Origin: a virus | Direction: 5' to 3' (one strand) | Length of the DNA stretch: 64,000 bases | Virus record (IMG/VR): IMGVR_UViG_3300023493_000006 | Span: 10,434-74,433 of that record | Notes under the pieces: generated by a model | Database searches by the model: none | What the model was told of the DNA's origin: nothing | Seen by the model: only the letters and a program-made list of their open reading frames with translations | In this document: piece by piece, positions 10,310 through 57,212 of the stretch | Layout of the letters: the number at the start of each line of letters is the position of its first letter | Position numbering within the stretch: the first letter of the stretch is position 1 | Translations under genes and position numbers: made by a program

Positions 10310-10462
10310 CAAGTTGTTTTCCTCCCCAAAATAAAAAAGAGCCGCCAAGTAAGATAAAAATTCCTCAAAATTGAGAAATATTAATTTCTTCTTAGCGGCT
10401 CAAAAATCAAAACCGTGTGTACTTCTTCATTAAAGAAATCATACCACACAATCAGTCAAAAA

Positions 10463-13400
10463 TCAATATGCCGGGGACGGTTTGAAACGGCTATCTGTAT
10501 CATTTTGGGCTTTTGTTACTGCTTTTGCAATCTCGCTTCCGTCCAGAATAATGCTATTCATAATGTACTGCGGATTGTTATTTCCGCTGTTCATACTCAT
10601 TGCCATTGCAACGCCCTGTGCTACTGCTTTTGCCATTTCTTCTTTTGTAAGTCCCATGCTTCCGTCCGAACTGGAAACAATGCTGTCTGCAATCTTCTTC
10701 ATGGTTCGTGGATTTTCCAGCGGAAGGACGGCTTCAGAACCGGCTTCACCGATACCGATTACCTGTGCGCCGTTGAAAAGACCACCTTTGGCGTACCAAT
10801 TAGGCTTGTAAACTGGTGTAGAACTAGTTCTTCCACCACCAAGATCATGTTTTCTCCACTCTGAAATATAATAAGTTAGAGTTGGTAAATGTACTTGTTT
10901 CATGCCATCAGCGAATGATTGAGCAGTTTCCCGACCAATTGATGTAAGATTAACATTAAATAGCCTTTTAATTTTATCCGAAATCCCAGACAAATTAGAT
11001 TCTGTGTAGGTTTTCATTTTCCCAGTTTCCGTGTCAACTTTACCAGAAGCCTTTTCCCAAATCTGGTTTGTATTGATTAGAACAGAAGACCAATAGCTTT
11101 GAATGGTGGTCATAACCTTACCCATTATATCTTTGGTATCGGTATCCATGGTTCCGAGGGCTGTCGATACAGCACTTGCGGAATTTCCCCAGTTTGTTTT
11201 GGAGTTGGTTTCAACATCATCATTCGTGTTCTTTATCTTTGACCAAATGGAAGGCATTGTGCTTTCTGTGCTTTTTTTCATTCCAGCCATTGCCGTGCTT
11301 ACAGCTGCACTGGCTATTCCAAAACCAGTCTTAGAGTTTGAAGAAATGGATTTCGTAGCTGTTTCCACTGATTTGCTCATTGTTGATGAAGATTTTGGAA
11401 CATCTTCTGAAAAAGCTTTAATAACTTTTCCTGTGTCAATTCCCATCTCTGCCATTTTATCCATCAAGGCTTGGAATGCGGCTCTGGCTGTTGCACCAGA
11501 TGATTCTTGTTGCTGAAGGACAGCACTTAATTCATCAAACTGCGTTGGAGTGATTACCGCTTGATTTGAAAGTCTTTCTAATGCAGATTTCGCATTATCA
11601 AATTCTGTCCCCATCGTACCGATATATTCATTAATATTACTTACATGAGAATTTGTAGAAGTATCGGATTCTTCCATTGCCTGTTTTAATGCTTGCTTAA
11701 ATGTATCGGAAGAAATTCCAAGATTTTCAAGTGATGTTTCTACAGTTTGGAGCTGTCCATCAAAATCAAATGCATTGTCTTTCACATTTTTTAAATCACC
11801 GCCAAGACCGATAAATTTATCCCCGGAAATTCCAGTTTGGTCTTCAAGGATTTTTAATGCTTTTCTAACAACTTCAAAATCGTTGAATGCGTCAGCTGTG
11901 GAGTCTTTAAAGTCCATAGCTTTTTTTACCTGTCCAAGACCTTCCATGACAAATGCAGTTGCGCCCAAATTTGTTGCGTATCCCCAAAATCCTTGGAATT
12001 GTCCACCAGCTGTTTGTGCGACGTCACCAAGATTTTTTATCTTTTCAGCAAGGGTAGTAAATCCTCCATTTCCTGCGGATTCTGCCGCATCCCCTAAATC
12101 TTTTATTGCTTCTTTTGCTCCACTCGTGCCATCTCCAAGGACATCTGCTAATTTTTCAGCAATGAGATCAGCATTTTCTTTGGCAATAATTTTTCCGCCA
12201 ATGTGATCAATAAGGTTCCATGCAAGTTCTCCAATTCCGCTTACTTTAAGAACATTTACGACAAGAAAGGCTTTTCCAAGAATATCAACAAGACTTCCAA
12301 CAAGCGGATGGTCTTCTTTTATTCCGTCCACCAATCCGTTAAAAGCACTTGATAAGCCTCCTAGAATCAAATCAGCCGCAGTACCAAGGATTTCACCCCA
12401 TGGTAACTCACCAAGGAACGTTCCAACGCCTTGTCCAAATTCATAAAAAGTGTCTTTGGTGAGAGAATCTTTTAATGCTGTACACAAATGAGATATAAAA
12501 TCTCCAAGAGCCTGTCCATTTTCTTTCCAGTTTGTTTCTTTGATGAATTTAGCGATTCCATCTCTTATCTTGGTTGCGAGATCATCCCAATTAAATGTTT
12601 CTGTAAATGATTTTAAGCTTTCGAACGCTCCGTTTAATAAACCAGAAAGTGCATCTGCAATTGTGTTCATGTCTATCTTTTTGATTGCACCATTTAAGGC
12701 TTTTCCAATAGCAGTGCCAAGCTTACCCCATCCAGTAATTCCAGCACCATCTTTTTTAGACATATCCTTTACAAAGCCAGAAAGCATTTTCCAAGATGCC
12801 ATAAAACTGTTTCCGATTAAGGTTCCAAGACCTGTCCAGTCAATTTCCTTTATAGCTCCTTTTAAAAGTTGAGACAGTTTTGCCCCTATTCCAGAAAAAT
12901 CTATTCCTCCATCTCCAAGCAACAGGTTTAGAGTATTTACTGCTGTGTTAATTCCAGATCCAAGCATTCTTCCAATTAAGTCGAAATCAATTCCGCTAAC
13001 CATGGAATTAAATGCTGTTGTAAATGCATTTACAAATTCGGTTATTTTCGGGCCAACATTATTCCAATTAATAACTTCATATATTTTTTGCATTCCGACA
13101 TTTATCATGTCTGCAATAGTGGAACCTAGTCCCTGCCAGTCTTTATTGATAAATGCTTTTCTGATTTTAGCAGCCCATTTATTAATTGGTGTTTCGTCAA
13201 CAGTCAAAACTTCATCCAGTGAATCTTGTATTCCAGCAAAACTATCTGCTAAATCTCCAAGCCCAGAACCAAGACTTTTAGATGCAGTTCCAGAATTATC
13301 AGAATTATCGGCAAGCTGATTTAATTGGTCGAATGGCAATACAGAAAGTGCCTTTTTCAGTTTCTTAGCAGATGATGTAGCGTCATCAAGACCAGAAGAT

Positions 13401-15127
13401 GCGTCATCACCAGCTGTTTCTATACCACCTAAATTAGATACGATATCACTAACTCCACTCTGCGAGCCTTTTAGTTTCTTTCCCATCAATACATACATGA
13501 AGTTGCGAAATGCATTTGCGGCTTGCATAAGTTTTGACATGAGCGCATTAAGTGCTTGAATAGCCGGGAGAATTCCAGCGATTAAACCTTGCCCGATTAC
13601 TGCAGAAAGTGACTGGAAGTTCAAGGTAAGCAAACGAACCTGGTTCGCCCATGTTCCAGATGTCCTTGCGAAATCCCCTTGCACATCTCCTGTAACTGAC
13701 ATTAAATAGTTGTATCGAAGAGCAACTTTTTCAGCTTGGGACATTGCGTTATAAGATGTTGTAATTCCCCTTGAAAGAGCATAAGCCTCCATATTTGCAA
13801 CGGATAAATTAATTCCCAATTGTCTTAAAGGCTCAATTTCCCCAGAAATTCCAGAGCGTATTTTCTGAAAAGCTGTATCAGTATCAATATTGTAAAATGA
13901 TGCAATATCCCCGGCTAATCCAGCAAGAGAAATTGACATTTTAGAAGCTGCATCTTGCGCAACACCAGACGATTTCATCATTGCCATCATGGTTCCAGAA
14001 TATTGCTTTGCTGCCAATTCGGATAATCCAAATTGTTCTTTGGCCGTAGAAGCAAATTTGTAGGCTTCATCTGCCATGCTTCCAAAGGAAACATCTACAA
14101 CATTTTCGATTTCTGTAATAGCAGAGCCAAAACCAATTGCACTTTTTCCTAAATTTGCCAGACCACGAATAGCCTTAAAACCGATAGCAGTTTTAAGCAA
14201 ATTTCCGAGATTAAAAGAAGCGGTTTTAATTCCAGAACTACTATTCCCGAGACGTTGAAACCATCCAATAATGCCTTTTACCCCGGTTCCAATTATAGAA
14301 GAAGTTTTACTAACAATATTACCAAGGCTAGATGTTGCAGATGATAATTTAGAAAACGCACTGGATATAGAATTTGTAGCGGAATTTACCTTTCCCCCTG
14401 CATTAGCCAACTTTGCCAGTGCTTCCGTCATGCGGATGGTGTTCTCACTTATTTTAGGTGCAGTTTTCATTACATCGAAGAAAGACAATACTTCCTTTGC
14501 TAGTGTTCCAAGCTGGCTTGACGTTTGTCCGATTCTATTTCCAGAGCTTGCCAATTGTGCAATAGACTGAACTAACCTATTTACAGGTTCAGATATATCG
14601 CCAACGCTCGTAAAACTCTCTACGATTGATTTAAGATTTCTTCCAAGCCCAGGCAATTCAGCTGATACATTCGCAATATATTCACCGGAATTGGCTAATC
14701 TAGCCATTGAATTGACAAAGCGATTAACACCGGAAGATACATCTGGAATCTCTGTCAAATTGCTTAATTTATGGATTATTTCTCCGAGTTTTCCTGTGTC
14801 AAAACTGCTTATATCAACCTGGCTAAGTCTATTGATTGAGTTAATAACCGCATTAAGGCCAGAACCTTTATAGTTTACGCCACCCATTGTCTTTATGGAA
14901 TTTGAGAATTTTCCAATTCCAACAGCAATGCTTGTCATTTTCCCTATATCAAGTTCTTTTAGTTTTCCAAGTTCCCTTACACAACTACGTAATCCGTTTG
15001 TATTAACTCCGCTTAATGCGGAATTAACTTCTGTGAGTTTATTTGAAAGATTAGTCAGCGCACGTACTGCTTTTTCTGTACTACTGCTAATTTGTATATC
15101 AAGGGTATCAATGGTATTGTCAGCCAT
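10463..15127 (-). CDS. Tail tape measure protein (1554 aa)
   Basis: Very long alpha-helical, low-complexity protein following the chaperone genes. Strong RBS AGGAGGG. Typical TMP position and composition. Confidence 0.85.
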   Translation of the reverse strand: MADNTIDTLDIQISSSTEKAVRALTNLSNKLTEVNSALSGVNTNGLRSCVRELGKLKELDIGKMTSIAVGIGKFSNSIKTMGGVNYKGSGLNAVINSINRLSQVDISSFDTGKLGEIIHKLSNLTEIPDVSSGVNRFVNSMARLANSGEYIANVSAELPGLGRNLKSIVESFTSVGDISEPVNRLVQSIAQLASSGNRIGQTSSQLGTLAKEVLSFFDVMKTAPKISENTIRMTEALAKLANAGGKVNSATNSISSAFSKLSSATSSLGNIVSKTSSIIGTGVKGIIGWFQRLGNSSSGIKTASFNLGNLLKTAIGFKAIRGLANLGKSAIGFGSAITEIENVVDVSFGSMADEAYKFASTAKEQFGLSELAAKQYSGTMMAMMKSSGVAQDAASKMSISLAGLAGDIASFYNIDTDTAFQKIRSGISGEIEPLRQLGINLSVANMEAYALSRGITTSYNAMSQAEKVALRYNYLMSVTGDVQGDFARTSGTWANQVRLLTLNFQSLSAVIGQGLIAGILPAIQALNALMSKLMQAANAFRNFMYVLMGKKLKGSQSGVSDIVSNLGGIETAGDDASSGLDDATSSAKKLKKALSVLPFDQLNQLADNSDNSGTASKSLGSGLGDLADSFAGIQDSLDEVLTVDETPINKWAAKIRKAFINKDWQGLGSTIADMINVGMQKIYEVINWNNVGPKITEFVNAFTTAFNSMVSGIDFDLIGRMLGSGINTAVNTLNLLLGDGGIDFSGIGAKLSQLLKGAIKEIDWTGLGTLIGNSFMASWKMLSGFVKDMSKKDGAGITGWGKLGTAIGKALNGAIKKIDMNTIADALSGLLNGAFESLKSFTETFNWDDLATKIRDGIAKFIKETNWKENGQALGDFISHLCTALKDSLTKDTFYEFGQGVGTFLGELPWGEILGTAADLILGGLSSAFNGLVDGIKEDHPLVGSLVDILGKAFLVVNVLKVSGIGELAWNLIDHIGGKIIAKENADLIAEKLADVLGDGTSGAKEAIKDLGDAAESAGNGGFTTLAEKIKNLGDVAQTAGGQFQGFWGYATNLGATAFVMEGLGQVKKAMDFKDSTADAFNDFEVVRKALKILEDQTGISGDKFIGLGGDLKNVKDNAFDFDGQLQTVETSLENLGISSDTFKQALKQAMEESDTSTNSHVSNINEYIGTMGTEFDNAKSALERLSNQAVITPTQFDELSAVLQQQESSGATARAAFQALMDKMAEMGIDTGKVIKAFSEDVPKSSSTMSKSVETATKSISSNSKTGFGIASAAVSTAMAGMKKSTESTMPSIWSKIKNTNDDVETNSKTNWGNSASAVSTALGTMDTDTKDIMGKVMTTIQSYWSSVLINTNQIWEKASGKVDTETGKMKTYTESNLSGISDKIKRLFNVNLTSIGRETAQSFADGMKQVHLPTLTYYISEWRKHDLGGGRTSSTPVYKPNWYAKGGLFNGAQVIGIGEAGSEAVLPLENPRTMKKIADSIVSSSDGSMGLTKEEMAKAVAQGVAMAMSMNSGNNNPQYIMNSIILDGSEIAKAVTKAQNDTDSRFKPSPAY

Positions 15128-25508: not shown

Positions 25509-26546
25509 TTATTCCCCCGCCTTGGTACCGATTACGATACCGCCGTTAGCTTTTGGTGCAACAGGAACAAACATACCGGATGCTTTTGTCCATACTGCAA
25601 CTGGGTCTGGTGTAGCCCACATGGAAAGAGTAACAAAGGAACGATTCTCTTCCTGGATAAACTGTCTGTATTCAAGCTCTTCTGGAGTTACGCCCCAAAG
25701 GCCGGAACCAAAGGAACCATTCGCATTTGCTTCATACAAAGTAAACACATCTTCTTTGAAGTATCTTCCTGTTTTCAAAGTTCCGTCTGCTTTTCTGTAA
25801 CGATATTTTTCATCACAACGATCAATTGTGAATCCGTACTCCTGCATAAGCAGATTTGTAAGCTCCTGTTTTGTCAGAAGACGTTTGTTTGCAGCTCCAA
25901 GAACTGCGGTCTGCATTGCAGTATTGTTCCGCATGTAATTAATCATCTTGAGAGAAGTAAGAGCTTTGTTTACCACATATCCGTTATCTTCTGCAATGGC
26001 TACCATCTTTGAGATATCGCCCATGATATCTGCGTCTGGCTTAGACCAATCAGTAAGTGTTACTTTTGCATCAGATGTAACGCCGTAATCAATGCTCATA
26101 TCCACATGATTTTCCTTAATTTTTACAATACCAGTGGAAAGGAACTGGCCTTTCATTACATTCGCTCTTGCGACTACGCCCTCAAAAAGATTGGCTGCAT
26201 CGTCAAATACAAATTTTTTGAGATTATTGTCATCTGGAACACCATTTTCGATTGCTTGCTGTAATCGCTCAGACTGATTGATTTTTCTCTTGATGAAAAG
26301 TTTCTCGGTCAATACCTTTTCAAATCCAGGTCTGGAACCGATTTCTGCTTCAGTATCAAGTGCATGAACAAAAGCTACCTCTGGCAGTCGCTGTCCAGCC
26401 ATAAGTCTGTAATACTCTGCTTTCAGATACTGTGTTTTTGTATCTGGGAAAATGGTACCAAGGATGCCAGGTCTTTTTACATCAAAACTCTGGGAGAAAT
26501 TAAGTCTCTCTTCCTCTGTGATTGTTTCTAATACATTAAATGGCAT
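25509..26546 (-). CDS. Major capsid protein (lambda gpE-like / HK97 fold)
   Basis: 345 aa following the scaffold and gpD-like genes. Sequence character of Phage_cap_E family. Confidence 0.7.
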   Translation of the reverse strand: MPFNVLETITEEERLNFSQSFDVKRPGILGTIFPDTKTQYLKAEYYRLMAGQRLPEVAFVHALDTEAEIGSRPGFEKVLTEKLFIKRKINQSERLQQAIENGVPDDNNLKKFVFDDAANLFEGVVARANVMKGQFLSTGIVKIKENHVDMSIDYGVTSDAKVTLTDWSKPDADIMGDISKMVAIAEDNGYVVNKALTSLKMINYMRNNTAMQTAVLGAANKRLLTKQELTNLLMQEYGFTIDRCDEKYRYRKADGTLKTGRYFKEDVFTLYEANANGSFGSGLWGVTPEELEYRQFIQEENRSFVTLSMWATPDPVAVWTKASGMFVPVAPKANGGIVIGTKAGE

Positions 26547-42915: not shown

Positions 42916-43008
42916 TAGGGGGGCTTAAGATTCCGGGCAAGTTTTTGTACTGTTTATTTTTGGCTTAGCGTATGATATAATAACATAAAATAGGGGGGGT
43001 AATACTAT

Positions 43009-43437
43009 ATGATAATGTTAAAAATGGAAAAATGGGAAAGTATTGTAAATGAAACTATTAAGCATTTTTTTGATAATTATAAAGTATTTGATGATAATAA
43101 CAAAGCTTTAGAAAATAAAAGCCTGTATCAATATATTAATGATATTTATGAAGAAGGGCCAGAAACAGAAATTCTGCACTTTCTATTTACTGGCGACAGC
43201 GAATATATCCAATTTGCGGGAAAGTACAATATTTCTTTATACGATGAATTTTCACAAGAACTTGAAAATAAATTGATTGATGAATTTTATTCCCTTAATC
43301 AAGAACAATTCTGCGACGATCTCGAAAATTTTACAGATTATTTTTTAAGTGAACACACAATTTTATTGAAAACATATATTTATGATATTCTTGATGGTTT
43401 TACGGCTAAAAAGTTAAAATGCATTATTTTTAAATAG
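43009..43437 (+). CDS. Hypothetical protein (142 aa)
   Basis: ORF followed by a GC-rich hairpin + T6 terminator (43442-43500). Confidence 0.4.
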   Translation: MIMLKMEKWESIVNETIKHFFDNYKVFDDNNKALENKSLYQYINDIYEEGPETEILHFLFTGDSEYIQFAGKYNISLYDEFSQELENKLIDEFYSLNQEQFCDDLENFTDYFLSEHTILLKTYIYDILDGFTAKKLKCIIFK

Positions 43438-45152: not shown

Positions 45153-46865
45153 TTATAGTGCTAAAAGGTACTTATATTTGTAAAATACCATATGTTGTGT
45201 CTTGATGCAAGTTTTCCTACTAAATATCTTGTGTTGTTCTGAATGTAGAGTGAAAATCATATCGTCAGAACGGCGCAAGGGAAACCCCCATTTTTCAAGG
45301 CTTCCAGACCTTAATTGAAATGTCAGTGTTGCACATGTAGCCGCCAACGGTTCCACGGTAATTTTCTCAAAAAGTTCATTGACAATCTGCCTGTTAATTT
45401 CTTGTGGAGTAACACCTTTGAACTTTTCTAACTGTTCTTTAATAGCACTTAATTGTATTTCTACTGGCTCTGGACTTTTGGTATTTTGGATTTCTAGAAT
45501 ATGGCTCTCAATCTGCTTTATCTGCTTTACGTATTCTTTATTTCTTGAAATAAATTCATCATCAGATATTTTTCCATCCAGATTATATTCCAGTATTTTT
45601 TCGCGTTTCTGTTTCAATGTGTCAATCTGTTTTTCAAGTCGTGATATTTCACTTTTGTTGTCTGGGATGTTTTTTATTGTAGACTGTAAGATTTCAAAAT
45701 ATTCTTTCAAAATATTATCAATATTTTCAGAAGATTTATTAATCAAATCTGCAATTACTTCTTTCAATTCTGATTCTGCCAGCCCAAACGAAGTACACGA
45801 AGCTGCTCCGTTTTTTATTTTATAGCTGCATACCCATCGAACATCTTCTTTTCCTCTGATATAATGTTGCTTCATCCAGTATGGAGCTCCGTCATTTGAG
45901 CAGAAAAGTTTTCCAGTGAAAATATTTTCGTTTTTAAAAGAGGTTCTTCTTGATTTTATAGCTTCTCCACGCTCTCTTAAATATGCGTTTGCCTTTTCCC
46001 AGGTAGTTTCATCAATGATCTGCGGTACTCTGGAACCATCATCCTTAAACATTATCCATTCTGACTGCGGAAGAAATTCTTGTTTCTTGGTGAACATATC
46101 GACAACCTTTACTTTTCCTCCACAATAGTATCCTTTGTATTTTGGATTCCGAATAATATTTTTTATGACATCTCTACTGATCTTACCGCCTTTGAAACTT
46201 CTATATCCCATATTCCAGAGTTTTTTTTCGATTCTTGGCGTAGATATTCCGGAAGCGTAATCTTGAAAAATCATTCGAACCATTTCTGCTTCTTCTGGAA
46301 TCAGTTCGAGCTTTCCTTGATTGTTTGAGTATCCATACATTCTGTGTCCGAGAACAACACCGTTTTTGATCGACTGTGCGTGTCCAAACTTTACTCTTGA
46401 AGAAAGTTTTCGGATTTCGTCCTGCGCTACCCCAGCCATAATAGTAAGTCGGAACTCACTATCATCATCAATAGTGTTAATTCCATCATTTTGGAACCAA
46501 ACGCATACGCCGTAAGACAACAATTCTCTGGTGTATTGGATGCTATCAAGAGTGTTTCTCGCAAATCTTGAAATTTCTTTTGTTATAATCATGTCAATTT
46601 TTCCAAGCTTTGCATCTCTGAGCATTCTTTGGAATTCTTCTCTTTTATCTGCGTGCATTCCAGAGATACCATCATCAATGTAAGAACCGGCAAACTTCCA
46701 TCTGTTGTTAGAATGTATCAGTTCTTCGAAATGTTCCTCCTGGTGCTTAATGGATGCTTGCTGTTCAACTTTTTCAGTAGAAACCCTGGCATAATAAGCA
46801 ACATTTAGTTCAATGTCGTAAATAGAGCAATTTCTTAATTTTTCTCTGACATAATAAATATTCAT
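45153..46865 (-). CDS. Large serine recombinase (resolvase catalytic domain + recombinase domain + zinc ribbon + coiled coil)
   Basis: Start MNIYYVREKL (RBS AAGGGAGAA). YARVSTEKVEQQASIKHQ...DDGISGMHADKREEFQRML...DMIITKEISRFARN. Cys cluster CSNDG..C..C..C. Confidence 0.85.
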   Translation of the reverse strand: MNIYYVREKLRNCSIYDIELNVAYYARVSTEKVEQQASIKHQEEHFEELIHSNNRWKFAGSYIDDGISGMHADKREEFQRMLRDAKLGKIDMIITKEISRFARNTLDSIQYTRELLSYGVCVWFQNDGINTIDDDSEFRLTIMAGVAQDEIRKLSSRVKFGHAQSIKNGVVLGHRMYGYSNNQGKLELIPEEAEMVRMIFQDYASGISTPRIEKKLWNMGYRSFKGGKISRDVIKNIIRNPKYKGYYCGGKVKVVDMFTKKQEFLPQSEWIMFKDDGSRVPQIIDETTWEKANAYLRERGEAIKSRRTSFKNENIFTGKLFCSNDGAPYWMKQHYIRGKEDVRWVCSYKIKNGAASCTSFGLAESELKEVIADLINKSSENIDNILKEYFEILQSTIKNIPDNKSEISRLEKQIDTLKQKREKILEYNLDGKISDDEFISRNKEYVKQIKQIESHILEIQNTKSPEPVEIQLSAIKEQLEKFKGVTPQEINRQIVNELFEKITVEPLAATCATLTFQLRSGSLEKWGFPLRRSDDMIFTLHSEQHKIFSRKTCIKTQHMVFYKYKYLLAL

Positions 46866-46946
46866 AGTGCATTTCTCCCTTAATAAACAGGGAGTGGAAT
46901 CATATAAAGTATAACACCTCATATAAATCCACTCAATACATTGTCG

Positions 46947-52401: not shown

Positions 52402-53286
52402 CTATTTCACCTCCTTTGTTTTCTCCTCTAGGCAATGTTTCAGTGCATGCATTACTGTATAATCCAGTATGTTTATCTCTTCGGGCTTGTTTTCTTTTCT
52501 GTAATTGTATTTGAATATTTCGCTTTCCAACGCTGCTGATATTTTTAATGGTTCCAAAGGATTTTCAATATCATCAAGATATTGCATCTCCATTTTCTCT
52601 TTATAAGCTCTTAGCTCTTTCAGTTCTTCCAGTAATTCTGCAATATCTTTCAGCCAGAATAATTCCCCATCTTCAAAACAACAACCATATTCATTCTGGT
52701 TATACGGACATGCCACTGCTTCTTTTCCACTGATGTAATCTTTTAAATTTTCTCCGGTTCCGCAAACAATGCGTTTATGCTCGTCATCGTCCATATGCAT
52801 GAAGTTTTCGTGATCTGCATAGCAATCACCCTCGACATCTTGGCTGGCAACGCATTTAAGTGCCTTTATCATATCGTCAAGTGTTATCTTTTCCATCATT
52901 CTGCCCCCCTTTGCTTCTTGATATATAATTGCCATATTGAAATCACTTCTAATGAACCTTAATGTCAGTTTATGATTTACAGCATTTCCAAGTTGATCGT
53001 AAATCCAGTACATATCCTCTTGGTCAAAGTTTGTACCCAGATATCTGTTAAGGCTTGATATCAGTTGTTCTCTCCATTCATTATTTCTTTTGTGCGAACT
53101 GTACGGCTCTCCTTTTGCCATTGGCCTTGAACACCATTCAAGTAGCTTGCAGATAATATCTTCTTTATCGGTACAATTCTTTGCTGTGAAATATACGTTT
53201 CCTTTTTCGGAAAGAATTATTTCCCCAAATCTGTTTATGTAGCTCCCGGGGAAGCATTCCATAAGACCGAAAATTTCATCAGTCAT
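52402..53286 (-). CDS. Hypothetical protein (294 aa)
   Basis: ORF. Confidence 0.45.
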   Translation of the reverse strand: MTDEIFGLMECFPGSYINRFGEIILSEKGNVYFTAKNCTDKEDIICKLLEWCSRPMAKGEPYSSHKRNNEWREQLISSLNRYLGTNFDQEDMYWIYDQLGNAVNHKLTLRFIRSDFNMAIIYQEAKGGRMMEKITLDDMIKALKCVASQDVEGDCYADHENFMHMDDDEHKRIVCGTGENLKDYISGKEAVACPYNQNEYGCCFEDGELFWLKDIAELLEELKELRAYKEKMEMQYLDDIENPLEPLKISAALESEIFKYNYRKENKPEEINILDYTVMHALKHCLEEKTKEVK

Positions 53287-54215: not shown

Positions 54216-54648
54216 TTACATTTTAGGTCCTCTAAAAATTACTATCATTGACGGAAACGGTGCACTATTCTTGCTGCCTCCGAATTTTAACCTTCCTTTC
54301 AAAAATCTAATTTCCGATCTGTGATATACAAAATCTTGAAACCATTTCGTATCTGTCCTTGCCGGAACCAGTAAAACAACGAGCGTATTCTCTTTATGTC
54401 CTTCCTGATAGCTCTTTTCAACCCATTGATATATTTCTCTTCCGTAAGGCGGGTTGCAAAACACTCGCATCCCCCCCCCAGTCCTGTATAAGACCATTTT
54501 CATTTTTAGTAAAAAATTTCTCGCATTTATGGTTTTTTGCGTCCGCGCATGGGTCTAGCGTGAAATCAAACTCTTTGTTTAATTCATCGAAAATATATTT
54601 AGTTGTAGCCCATTGATCGGAATTGCTGCTAAATAAACATTTTTCCAT
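54216..54648 (-). pseudogene. Phage Dam-family N6-adenine DNA methyltransferase (PF05869-like) split by a frameshift at a G9 (C9 on +) homopolymer at 54471-54479
   Basis: N-fragment ...NGLIQDWGGD and C-fragment ...MRVFCNPPYGREIYQWV...VVLLVPARTDTKWFQ. Deleting one G gives in-frame DWGGMRVFCNPPYG. Confidence 0.7.
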
Positions 54649-55904: not shown

Positions 55905-56359
55905 AACTCCATCTGTCCATCATCAATAAACTTCTTTTTCTTCCGGCTCAATATATTACCCTGCTGTTTCAATCTATTCACACGGGCTTTCTGGTTAAAG
56001 CTTGCCATATAATCATCGTCAACTTCTGGCGGTACTTTTAGAAAATATTCTTCGGGAAGTGGAAGATTATGTTCCTCACAACAATTTGCAATCTCATTTC
56101 TGTATGAAAGAATATGATTTCTGGTTAGATTCATATTGCAGCCATCCGCCCAAAATGGATCATTACAGCCATTTTCGTTGATGCGCTCCCAGATAACACG
56201 CTCATGTAATAGATTTTCTCTTAACAGCTCTAATTCCTGTTCCGGTGTTTTCTGCTTCATTCTCCTTCTCCTTTCGCTCATGTAAACAATTGACACGCTA
56301 TTGTGCAGTTGGCACATGATTTTAATACTCAATAAAATCAGATAATTCCATCTGACCAA
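55898..56359 (-). CDS. Hypothetical protein (153 aa)
   Basis: ORF. Confidence 0.4.
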   Translation of the reverse strand: MVRWNYLILLSIKIMCQLHNSVSIVYMSERRRRMKQKTPEQELELLRENLLHERVIWERINENGCNDPFWADGCNMNLTRNHILSYRNEIANCCEEHNLPLPEEYFLKVPPEVDDDYMASFNQKARVNRLKQQGNILSRKKKKFIDDGQMEFC

Positions 56360-57212
56360 CTACGTTGTTATCTTGCATCCACCATAGATAAACTTCTTCA
56401 CCACAGCTCCACTTCACATCTTTTCCGCGCCGCTTGCGTTCCTCAATCATTCTGTCAAAAGCACGTATATAGGCTTGCTTGTACTTTGGAAAATCGTACA
56501 TTTCCTTTTCCCTCTGCTTCTTTGATGCAAGCGGACAACCTAGACAGCCTAACCGATTATATCCACATTGATATAAATCACATACTTGAATATTTCTTTC
56601 GCCAATGAACTGCCAGATATTCTGATTTGTCCAGTCAATAATTGGATTAACTACTGTCTTTGCTTTCATCTGGCAATTTTCAAATAATCTTCTAGTACAA
56701 TCATTATCGGTTATAAGCATTTTCTCATCAGAAACGCCGATACTTTTGCTTGCTGTCTGTCCTAATACTTCAAATGGGCTTCTATTACTTCTCTTGCTAC
56801 TTTCAGACCATCTAACGCCTGTTGCAATCATTCTGTTAGGATTCCCACCTTCTTTCAGTTCTGAACAGCAATACCGAACAATTCTGGTAGGTGGCATTAG
56901 TTTTCTTGGAATAAGATTCCACATTGTAAGACGGTTGCCGTTTTCCTGCACATGATAATCAATCTCGCATTTGATGCCTTTGTCCGTCAATTCAGAAAAC
57001 GTATTCTTGATATGCCTTACTGTCTGCGGTGCATCAACAGTGGTATGTGAGTTATGTACTTCAAACGGGATTCCAGACATTCTGAATAGTTCAAGAAGCA
57101 CATCTGAATCCTTTCCGCCGGAATACTCACATACAAGTGGTTTGTTATAATGTTTCAACGAGAGATCAGACGCAAGCCGGATTCTTTCAATTGCTTTTTG
57201 TTCTAAATCCAT
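56322..57212 (-). CDS. PAPS-reductase-family PP-loop protein with a C-terminal Cys cluster
   Basis: EYSGGKDSDV P-loop. CDLYQCGYNRLGCLGCP Cys cluster. Confidence 0.7.
   Translation of the reverse strand: MDLEQKAIERIRLASDLSLKHYNKPLVCEYSGGKDSDVLLELFRMSGIPFEVHNSHTTVDAPQTVRHIKNTFSELTDKGIKCEIDYHVQENGNRLTMWNLIPRKLMPPTRIVRYCCSELKEGGNPNRMIATGVRWSESSKRSNRSPFEVLGQTASKSIGVSDEKMLITDNDCTRRLFENCQMKAKTVVNPIIDWTNQNIWQFIGERNIQVCDLYQCGYNRLGCLGCPLASKKQREKEMYDFPKYKQAYIRAFDRMIEERKRRGKDVKWSCGEEVYLWWMQDNNVVGQMELSDFIEY

Follow-up and report, generated by a model that had tools for sequence, protein, structure and literature searches.

Repeat-driven, phase-variable methyltransferases have been described in bacteria, where they include the Type III mod genes of Haemophilus, Neisseria and Helicobacter and the poly-G Type IIG gene cj0031 of Campylobacter jejuni (PMC4889913). 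Phages too possess unstable homopolymers. Hypermutable poly-G tracts are known from the receptor-binding genes of Fletchervirus, a group of Campylobacter phages (Sorensen et al. 2021), and homopolymer contingency loci have been characterized in agt of T2 and rIIA of T4 (Gomez et al. 2025 preprint). The latter preprint also remarks in passing on a poly-G tract in a methylase gene of Bordetella phage BPP-1, a tract that by its account was noticed once and never studied. Two phage-borne enzymes that act on GATC are of particular relevance here. M.Phi93DAM of Phi93, a Lactococcus phage of the 936 group, makes G6mATC, protects DNA against DpnII and sensitizes it to DpnI, as heterologous expression and single-molecule real-time (SMRT) sequencing have established (Murphy et al. 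2014, PMC4190342). In Staphylococcus aureus lysogens, PamA of the prophage mPhi11 methylates GATC sites and changes the expression of virulence genes of the host (PMC12435837). For such family relatives, the NPPY active site has been characterized experimentally (PMC12435837, PMC4190342). The present analysis concerns a small orphan dam gene of this kind that is interrupted at a run of nine G residues. It lies in a 64,000-nucleotide stretch of viral DNA (IMG/VR record IMGVR_UViG_3300023493_000006, positions 10,434 to 74,433), which is referred to as the window and to which all coordinates below relate.

The interrupted methyltransferase gene

The whole gene occupies positions 54216..54648 on the minus strand and is identified, by its profile match and translations, as a PF05869 Dam-type N6-adenine DNA methyltransferase. 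The interruption coincides with a poly-G tract at 54471..54479 of the minus strand, which appears as C9 on the plus strand and is made up of TGG-GGG-GGG, the codons for W-G-G, and one additional G. Around it the minus strand reads ...CAG GAC T GGGGGGGGG ATG CGA GTG TTT TGC AAC CCG CCT TAC GGA.... The N-terminal open reading frame (ORF) of this OFF allele (54418..54648, minus strand, 76 aa) starts at ATG 54648 and accommodates Dam residues 1–59, with the conserved LDPCA motif at 54544-54558 on the minus strand, followed by a 17-residue out-of-frame tail; it runs ...GLIQDWGG, then DASVLQPALRKRNISMG and a stop. The C-terminal part is found in another frame, which is open over 54216-54503, reads ...GGGMRVFCNPPYG...VVLLVPARTDTKWFQ... 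and ends with a stop at 54216. Within this frame an 84-aa ORF (54216..54470, minus strand), beginning MRVFCNPPYG..., extends from an ATG directly 3' of the tract through the stop. Catalytic motif IV, N-P-P-Y (54444..54455, minus strand), is located five codons 3' of the tract, at residues 65–68 of the repaired protein. The motif is kept in all relatives examined, and any out-of-frame tract length removes it from the N-terminal product.

The initial annotation had placed the two halves of a Dam enzyme in different frames, with the break exactly at G9, and the sequence, the ORFs and their translations bear this out. Its suggestion that loss of a single G restores the frame proved correct as well: on translation, deletion of one G (G8, a 143-aa ORF) or addition of two (G11) yields a single ORF of 143/144 aa with DWGGMRVFCNPPYG, and the G7 and G10 versions of the window gene are, like G9, out of frame. 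The family assignment is upheld by matches of the whole protein and of each half. The repaired 143-aa protein matches PF05869 over residues 8–139, a segment that spans the junction, with an E value of 3.8e-32 and 111.7 bits against a cutoff of 28.1, and covers positions 7–145 of the 169 in the profile; the N-half matches positions 7–63 and the C-half positions 61–145. The repaired protein also falls in phrog_111, annotated as DNA methyltransferase (E 8e-56; PHROGs).

It might be asked whether the interrupted gene simply works in two pieces, the N-terminal product to residue 59 and residues 60–143 translated from the ATG after the tract assembling into an active split methyltransferase. Naturally split methyltransferases exist, M.AquI being an example; the two ORFs together cover every residue of the enzyme, an AGGA lies 11 nt 5' of the internal ATG, and the 84-aa ORF is called by gene callers. 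Against these points, the Met after W-G-G is specific to the window's clade, other poly-G clades having D, H, Y, E, N, K or C at that position, and the break falls five residues before the catalytic loop. A two-piece enzyme is accordingly rated as highly improbable.

The poly-G tract is the only G/C homopolymer of at least 8 nt in the window, whose GC content is 37.5%. Dinucleotide-preserving shuffles contained a mean of 0.08 such runs, with at least one run in 6 of 100 shuffles. The G9 run is by itself only mildly unlikely by chance, and the significance of the tract rests on comparative data. One attribute of contingency loci, a slippage-prone repeat within the coding sequence in the form of a G/C run of at least about 7 nt, is evident from the window.

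Tract-length variation and the switch model

The interpretation favoured here, and considered on balance probable, is that the poly-G run is a selected ON/OFF switch: a slipped-strand contingency locus in an orphan phage Dam gene, caught in the OFF state in the window. W-G-G encoded as TGG-GGG-GGG, five codons 5' of NPPY, would provide a small orphan Dam with a G8 homopolymer, and slipped-strand mispairing during replication would cause this tract to gain or lose G residues. G8 (or G5, or G11) would specify the full enzyme and the ON state, and G6, G7, G9 and G10 would truncate the product before the catalytic motif and be OFF, as would the G9 allele of the window. If the changes are reversible, populations of phages and prophages would be mixtures of methylating and non-methylating genomes. 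Such mixtures may be a form of bet-hedging in the face of two kinds of host, one restricting unmethylated GATC (DpnII/MboI-like) and the other restricting its methylated form (DpnI-like, type IV), and lysogens could experience a stochastic toggling of the methylation of their own chromosome. The initial annotation had offered a switch and a basecalling error as equal candidates. The switch is supported by three lines of evidence presented below: lengths that vary on identical haplotypes, purifying selection on the restored frame, and a family-wide enrichment of the tract accompanied by frameshifts.

Tract lengths were read from assembled contigs, and an artefact of sequencing or assembly at the homopolymer, the true gene being G8 and in frame, therefore has to be weighed. 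Homopolymers are error-prone on some platforms, and the G8 copy of the window haplotype resides on a contig of 1.8x coverage (ENA contig L193, from another sample, with 0 mismatches to the window over 2095 nt). However, an identical G9 allele is present in an independent Logan assembly, SRR8666066, in which 1178 nt are 100% identical to the window, G9 included. Differing tract lengths are fixed in 10–99x assemblies produced by different assemblers in different studies; Illumina/SPAdes assemblies of moderate to high coverage show G7 at 37x, G8 at 99x and G9 at 21x. The split products have been called independently by gene callers in several sources. P0016 is a recorded product identical to the 76-aa N-half, and the near-identical P0017–P0020 occur on about 25 contigs; P0017, a G9 N-half, has index entries in 43 collection blocks that stem from many independent studies. 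The 84-aa C-terminal ORF is reported by gene callers as P0001 and accompanies G6, G7 and G9 alleles. Flank-pattern scans over IMG/VR and metagenome contigs, with the tract length left free, disclosed G7 in four IMG/VR contigs and, among the metagenome contigs, G7 twice (one at 37x), G8 twice (one at 99x) and the interrupted GGTGGGGG once. Finally, 64 copies of the gene exhibit no indels at other sites of the gene or in short A/T runs. Of all the explanations entertained here an artefact is the least probable, and a one-off basecalling error is essentially excluded as far as assemblies can show, in view of the G9 in an independent assembly, the 43 blocks and the several lengths seen in assemblies of 21x to 99x.

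These 64 full-length copies, all at least 94% identical to the window's gene at the nucleotide level, were sampled by product, and allele frequencies are therefore rough. The poly-G sub-clade comprises 8 copies with G6, 21 with G7, 11 with G8, 11 with G9 and 2 with G10. A single haplotype, identical at 424 of 424 non-tract nucleotides and represented by 27 independent human-gut contigs, harbours G6 in four cases, G7 in nine, G8 in ten, G9 in three and an interrupted run in one. Two further haplotypes are mixed in length, with G6 and G7 or with G8 and G9. In about 77 kb of alignments against the window, 52 of 63 loci have a tract unlike the window's, and the gaps outside it are scattered single events at mosaic junctions; the widely covered region holds no A/T run of at least 7 nt usable as a homopolymer control. 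Look-ups of exact products gave a similar range on the common background: G6 on 16 contigs, G7 in 36 blocks and in 88 more for a sister haplotype, G8 on 24 contigs plus the 12 of P0007, G9 in 43 blocks, and G10 in a few entries. No G11 product emerged from the exact-product look-ups for the window's clade. The exact look-ups of tract-length products that succeeded did so on the common Pro16 background, and on the rare Thr16 background of the window there were no exact matches for the G10, G7 and G11 products. Length polymorphism on identical or near-identical backgrounds, with indels confined to the tract, is a second attribute of contingency loci, and it can be said with high confidence that the tract is a real and recurrently mutating site.

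A number of smaller observations pertain to this variation. No two tract lengths were seen within one sample among the accessions listed. Contig L005 (OGHL01004992.1) ends 8 nt 5' of the tract, an anecdotal case, and the main haplotype is represented in many G7 and G8 cases by contigs of just 1–3 kb, whereas sister phages assemble to more than 40 kb; the short contigs could reflect breaks in the assembly graph arising from within-sample heterogeneity of the tract. In two in-frame variants a G-to-T change interrupts or shortens the run, giving TGG-TGG-GGG (W-W-G) in L009 and TTG-GGG-GGG (L-G-G) in L148. These could be stabilized alleles, obtained at the cost of an amino-acid change.

The remainder of the gene bears the marks of constraint. 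With a tract length of 8 imposed, each of the 18 haplotypes becomes an intact 432-nt ORF devoid of extra stops or indels. Polymorphic sites of the poly-G clade, read in this restored frame, include 33 synonymous and 8 nonsynonymous ones, set against about 80 synonymous and 349 nonsynonymous sites available, which corresponds to a pN/pS of about 0.06. On the 3' side of the tract the ratio is 19 synonymous to 5 nonsynonymous polymorphic sites, and the C-terminal half has therefore been evolving, in the restored frame, as coding sequence. Judged by these patterns of substitution, the gene is not a decaying pseudogene. Translations of the G7–G11 versions indicate that tract length decides between a full-length and a truncated product; the gene is otherwise kept intact, and this combination is a third attribute of contingency loci.

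A low pN/pS, although most alleles of the clade are out of frame, might also be expected if the full-length enzyme were made by recoding. In this scenario ribosomal frameshifting (+1 on G9, −1 on G7 at G_GGG_GGA) or slippage of RNA polymerase would deliver the complete product and the tract would tune the level of expression. A −1 slip on G_GGG_GGA in G7 would restore exactly DWGGM, and G-rich runs resembling Shine–Dalgarno (SD) sequences can stimulate ribosomal shifts, as in prfB. Yet shifts of opposite sign would be needed for G6/G9 and for G7/G10, and no single programmed site provides both. Most members of the family are in frame, the 81 nt downstream fold no better than shuffles (z = −0.07), and transcriptional slippage is documented mainly for A/T runs. 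Two hallmarks of programmed ribosomal frameshifting, a fixed out-of-frame arrangement in homologues and a stable downstream structure, were both absent. Recoding is consequently deemed very unlikely.

The case for a selected switch extends beyond the window's clade. Distant relatives with 45–75% amino-acid identity, drawn from IMG/VR and GTDB genomes, very often display a G7–G10 run at the same place. A G run of at least 7 within the 40 nt 5' of NPPY is found in 33 of 124 family clusters, and 31 of the 39 such runs in cluster representatives fall in that 40-nt interval of a 440-nt segment. GGG is otherwise the rarest glycine codon in the long ORFs of the window (12%), and GGG-GGG accounts for none of their 64 Gly-Gly pairs. 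In a codon test on 29 clades deduplicated at 80% identity, GGG makes up 44 of 61 glycine codons (72%) at the site against 40 of 238 (17%) elsewhere in the same genes, with an odds ratio of 12.8 and p about 4e-16. The repeat is thus enriched at the same place in homologues beyond the expectation from codon usage, a fourth attribute of contingency loci. The run also occurs in other contexts, namely W-G-G-G-N as G10 and A-G-G-G-T as GCG-GGG-GGG-GGT (G9).

Among the frameshifted copies of distant clades, nearly all have their shift at the tract. Three carry G9 where G8 is needed (L177, L184, L190), two G7 where G8 is needed (L178, L180) and one G8 where G7 is needed (L181). In two IMG/VR sets, shifted copies amount to 10 of 33 with a G run of at least 7 against 1 of 32 without, and the sole shifted copy without a long run is a G6 variant of a G7 clade. 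The A-G-G-G-T clade forms a series of G6 (in frame), G7, G8, G9 (in frame, 9–10 copies), G10 and G11. In-frame alleles that are 3 nt apart (G6/G9, G7/G10) coexist in two clades; these pairs hint at repeated steps of ±1 through OFF and back, and a single 3-nt slip could produce them too. A broader proposition, advanced tentatively and at somewhat short of an even chance, is that selection maintains poly-G just 5' of NPPY as a contingency locus throughout the PF05869 family of phage Dam genes. Temperate phages infecting anaerobes of the human, rabbit and ruminant gut would then make mixed methylated and unmethylated progeny as a hedge between DpnII-like and DpnI-like or type IV defences, and their prophages would impose a stochastic ON/OFF GATC methylome on commensals such as Blautia.

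A selected switch must be set against the view that the tract is a mutational hot spot with no adaptive role. Two synonymous changes (GGA-GGA to GGG-GGG) would have created a slippery run by accident, and the OFF alleles would be early pseudogenes, drifting or mildly favoured because the methyltransferase is dispensable in many hosts. Several observations are at odds with a selected switch, and three of them speak for an accidental hot spot: a dominant allele without the tract, a minority of in-frame G8 in the poly-G clade, and other knock-outs. The commonest allele (P0004 type, 1194 blocks) reads TGG-GGA-GGA and lacks a tract in 10 of 10 loci; the tract is therefore not needed for function. 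By product counts the in-frame G8 represents roughly a fifth to a third of the contigs of the clade. Since G7 and G9 alleles match or exceed it in frequency, it is in the minority, a situation as compatible with neutral drift in a dispensable gene as with a switch. In the allele clade without the homopolymer, L081 (IMG/VR 3300045988_109755) has a nonsense codon, TGG to TAG, at the W codon (QD*GGMRVF), and P0146 (13 contigs) has a frameshift, on this non-poly-G background, that gives DWGEYECF. Loss of the methyltransferase therefore recurs independently of the tract and is tolerated. In addition, the low pN/pS could in part represent variation imported by recombination from intact alleles, the enrichment of GGG might instead reflect a conserved rare-codon pause, many of the relatives are metagenome-assembled genomes (MAGs) or metagenome contigs, and the clades are not fully independent.

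What tells against an accidental hot spot is, in the first place, the enrichment of the tract at the exact site across the 29 deduplicated clades, though GGG is rare elsewhere, and its recurrence in WGG, WGGG and AGGG contexts. A second lesion is present in none of the OFF alleles, and the pN/pS in the restored frame is low. The pure tract has moreover persisted through about 4% nucleotide divergence, and an accidental liability should have been lost by synonymous interruption. A non-adaptive hot spot is thus regarded as unlikely, albeit the most serious competitor of the selected switch.

Target sequence, genome context and host

The repaired protein is 63% identical and 81% similar to M.Phi93DAM over 137 aa, and on the strength of this identity the window enzyme is predicted to be specific for GATC. 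A search of the PDB by sequence detected no solved structure of a relative. GATC occurs 91 times in the window, against 223 occurrences expected from trinucleotides, and is the second most depleted of 13 four-base palindromes; this depletion suggests that GATC-directed restriction is a real pressure. GGCC is depleted further still (24 against 91), and restriction pressure is suggested at both GATC and GGCC sites.

The window is the genome of a temperate siphovirus-type phage with nearly all genes on the minus strand. It encodes a tape measure protein (10463-15127), a major head protein (25509-26546), a portal (27736-29310) and a large terminase (29753-31447). Four tRNA genes on the minus strand (Ser-tga, Met-cat twice and Gln-ttg; 35209-36223) lie between the packaging and early regions. 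A large serine integrase is located at 45153-46922, and the early region, from about 47 kb onwards, harbours the Dam gene together with MazG-like, PAPS-reductase-like and GIY-YIG genes. The PAPS-reductase-domain gene (56322-57212, minus strand) is 1.7 kb upstream of Dam. PHROG 33262 holds fusions of PAPS-reductase and Dam domains, and the two genes are adjacent in several relatives, a hint that they are functionally linked in DNA modification. Some relatives encode three further products, P0167 (287 aa), P0152 (198 aa) and P0015 (159 aa), in which Dam is either fused by read-through to the gene upstream of it (YopX-like or DUF1653-like) or extended at its N-terminus. These fusions and extensions reflect very tight gene spacing and a mosaic junction just 5' of the Dam start.

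Two shorter G runs were noted elsewhere in the window. A G6 run (52904-52909, minus strand) inside the ORF 52402-53286, a neighbouring early gene, has one indel among the three loci that cover it. A G7 run on the plus strand (42993-42999) forms the SD-like AGGGGGGG, which follows closely on a TATAAT-like box and lies 9 nt 5' of an ATG at 43009. This second run sits in the sole plus-strand island of the phage (42.3–43.5 kb), which is possibly the lysogeny switch, and changes in its length would alter the spacing of the ribosome-binding site.

Related contigs are derived from human-gut metagenomes and viromes, measure 40–120 kb and possess highly mosaic neighbourhoods. Near and distant DNA searches of deposited phage genomes returned no close relative, the best matches being about 68% identical at the nucleotide level and belonging to Lactococcus and Geobacillus phages. 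An exact flank-pattern scan of representative bacterial genomes gave no matches. The protein-based scan of genome collections produced one close match only, a W-to-L in-frame variant in an uncultured Blautia MAG. The host is probably one of the human-gut Clostridia, Blautia or another member of the Lachnospiraceae.

Comparison with known systems

Phase-variable methyltransferases have so far been known as chromosomal genes of a few pathogens, and phage contingency loci have been shown experimentally only recently, in a handful of virulent phages. The type of mechanism proposed here is known, both from phase-variable methyltransferases and from phage poly-G loci. The literature, of which coverage was incomplete, yielded no account of a conserved poly-G switch, either in phage Dam genes of PF05869 or in temperate phages of the gut, and neither the CJIE1 prophage paper nor the Nature 2025 gut-phage paper contains anything on tracts in phage methyltransferases.

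If the selected switch is real, a poly-G switch conserved in an orphan Dam that is widespread among temperate gut phages would extend both ideas to the commensal microbiome, and would amount to a phage-borne phasevarion in the gut. It would also explain the frequent annotation of such genes in metagenomes as split or hypothetical. Heterogeneous GATC methylation of phage and lysogen DNA would be predicted and might influence host range and the expression of host genes, an influence on expression having been shown for the non-switching PamA. G8 and G9 alleles, along with ON-locked synonymous mutants, constitute a simple test system. On the practical side, frameshifts at the tract should not be corrected automatically as assembly errors.

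Of the characterized enzymes, M.Phi93DAM is a small orphan phage methyltransferase of the same PF05869 type and shares the position of NPPY with the window protein. Unlike the window gene, Phi93 encodes W-G-N-E (TGG GGC AAT GAA) at this place and has no homopolymer. PamA has NPPY at the same position and is probably also among the closest known relatives of the window protein. No switching has been described for either enzyme.

Phage contingency loci resemble the window gene in that slippage at a homopolymer generates mixed progeny and a hedge against host defences, as is proposed here. The likeness is greatest for T2 agt, which is also a DNA-modification gene and whose ON and OFF states trade off between different defences. 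Fletchervirus, T2 and T4 are, in contrast, virulent phages, and the genes and hosts involved are other than those of the temperate phage in the window. Bacterial phasevarions operate on the principle proposed for the window gene: an N6-adenine methyltransferase contains a simple-sequence repeat in its coding sequence, and frameshifts at this repeat decide whether methylation is ON or OFF. The cj0031 repeat is likewise a poly-G tract, of a length similar to that in the window. These bacterial systems are chromosomal, reside in pathogens and belong to restriction–modification Types I, III and IIG, whereas the window gene is an orphan of the Dam type in a temperate phage of gut commensals. A further difference from the bacterial phasevarions is that the repeat of the window gene is conserved at one position across a whole family of phage proteins.
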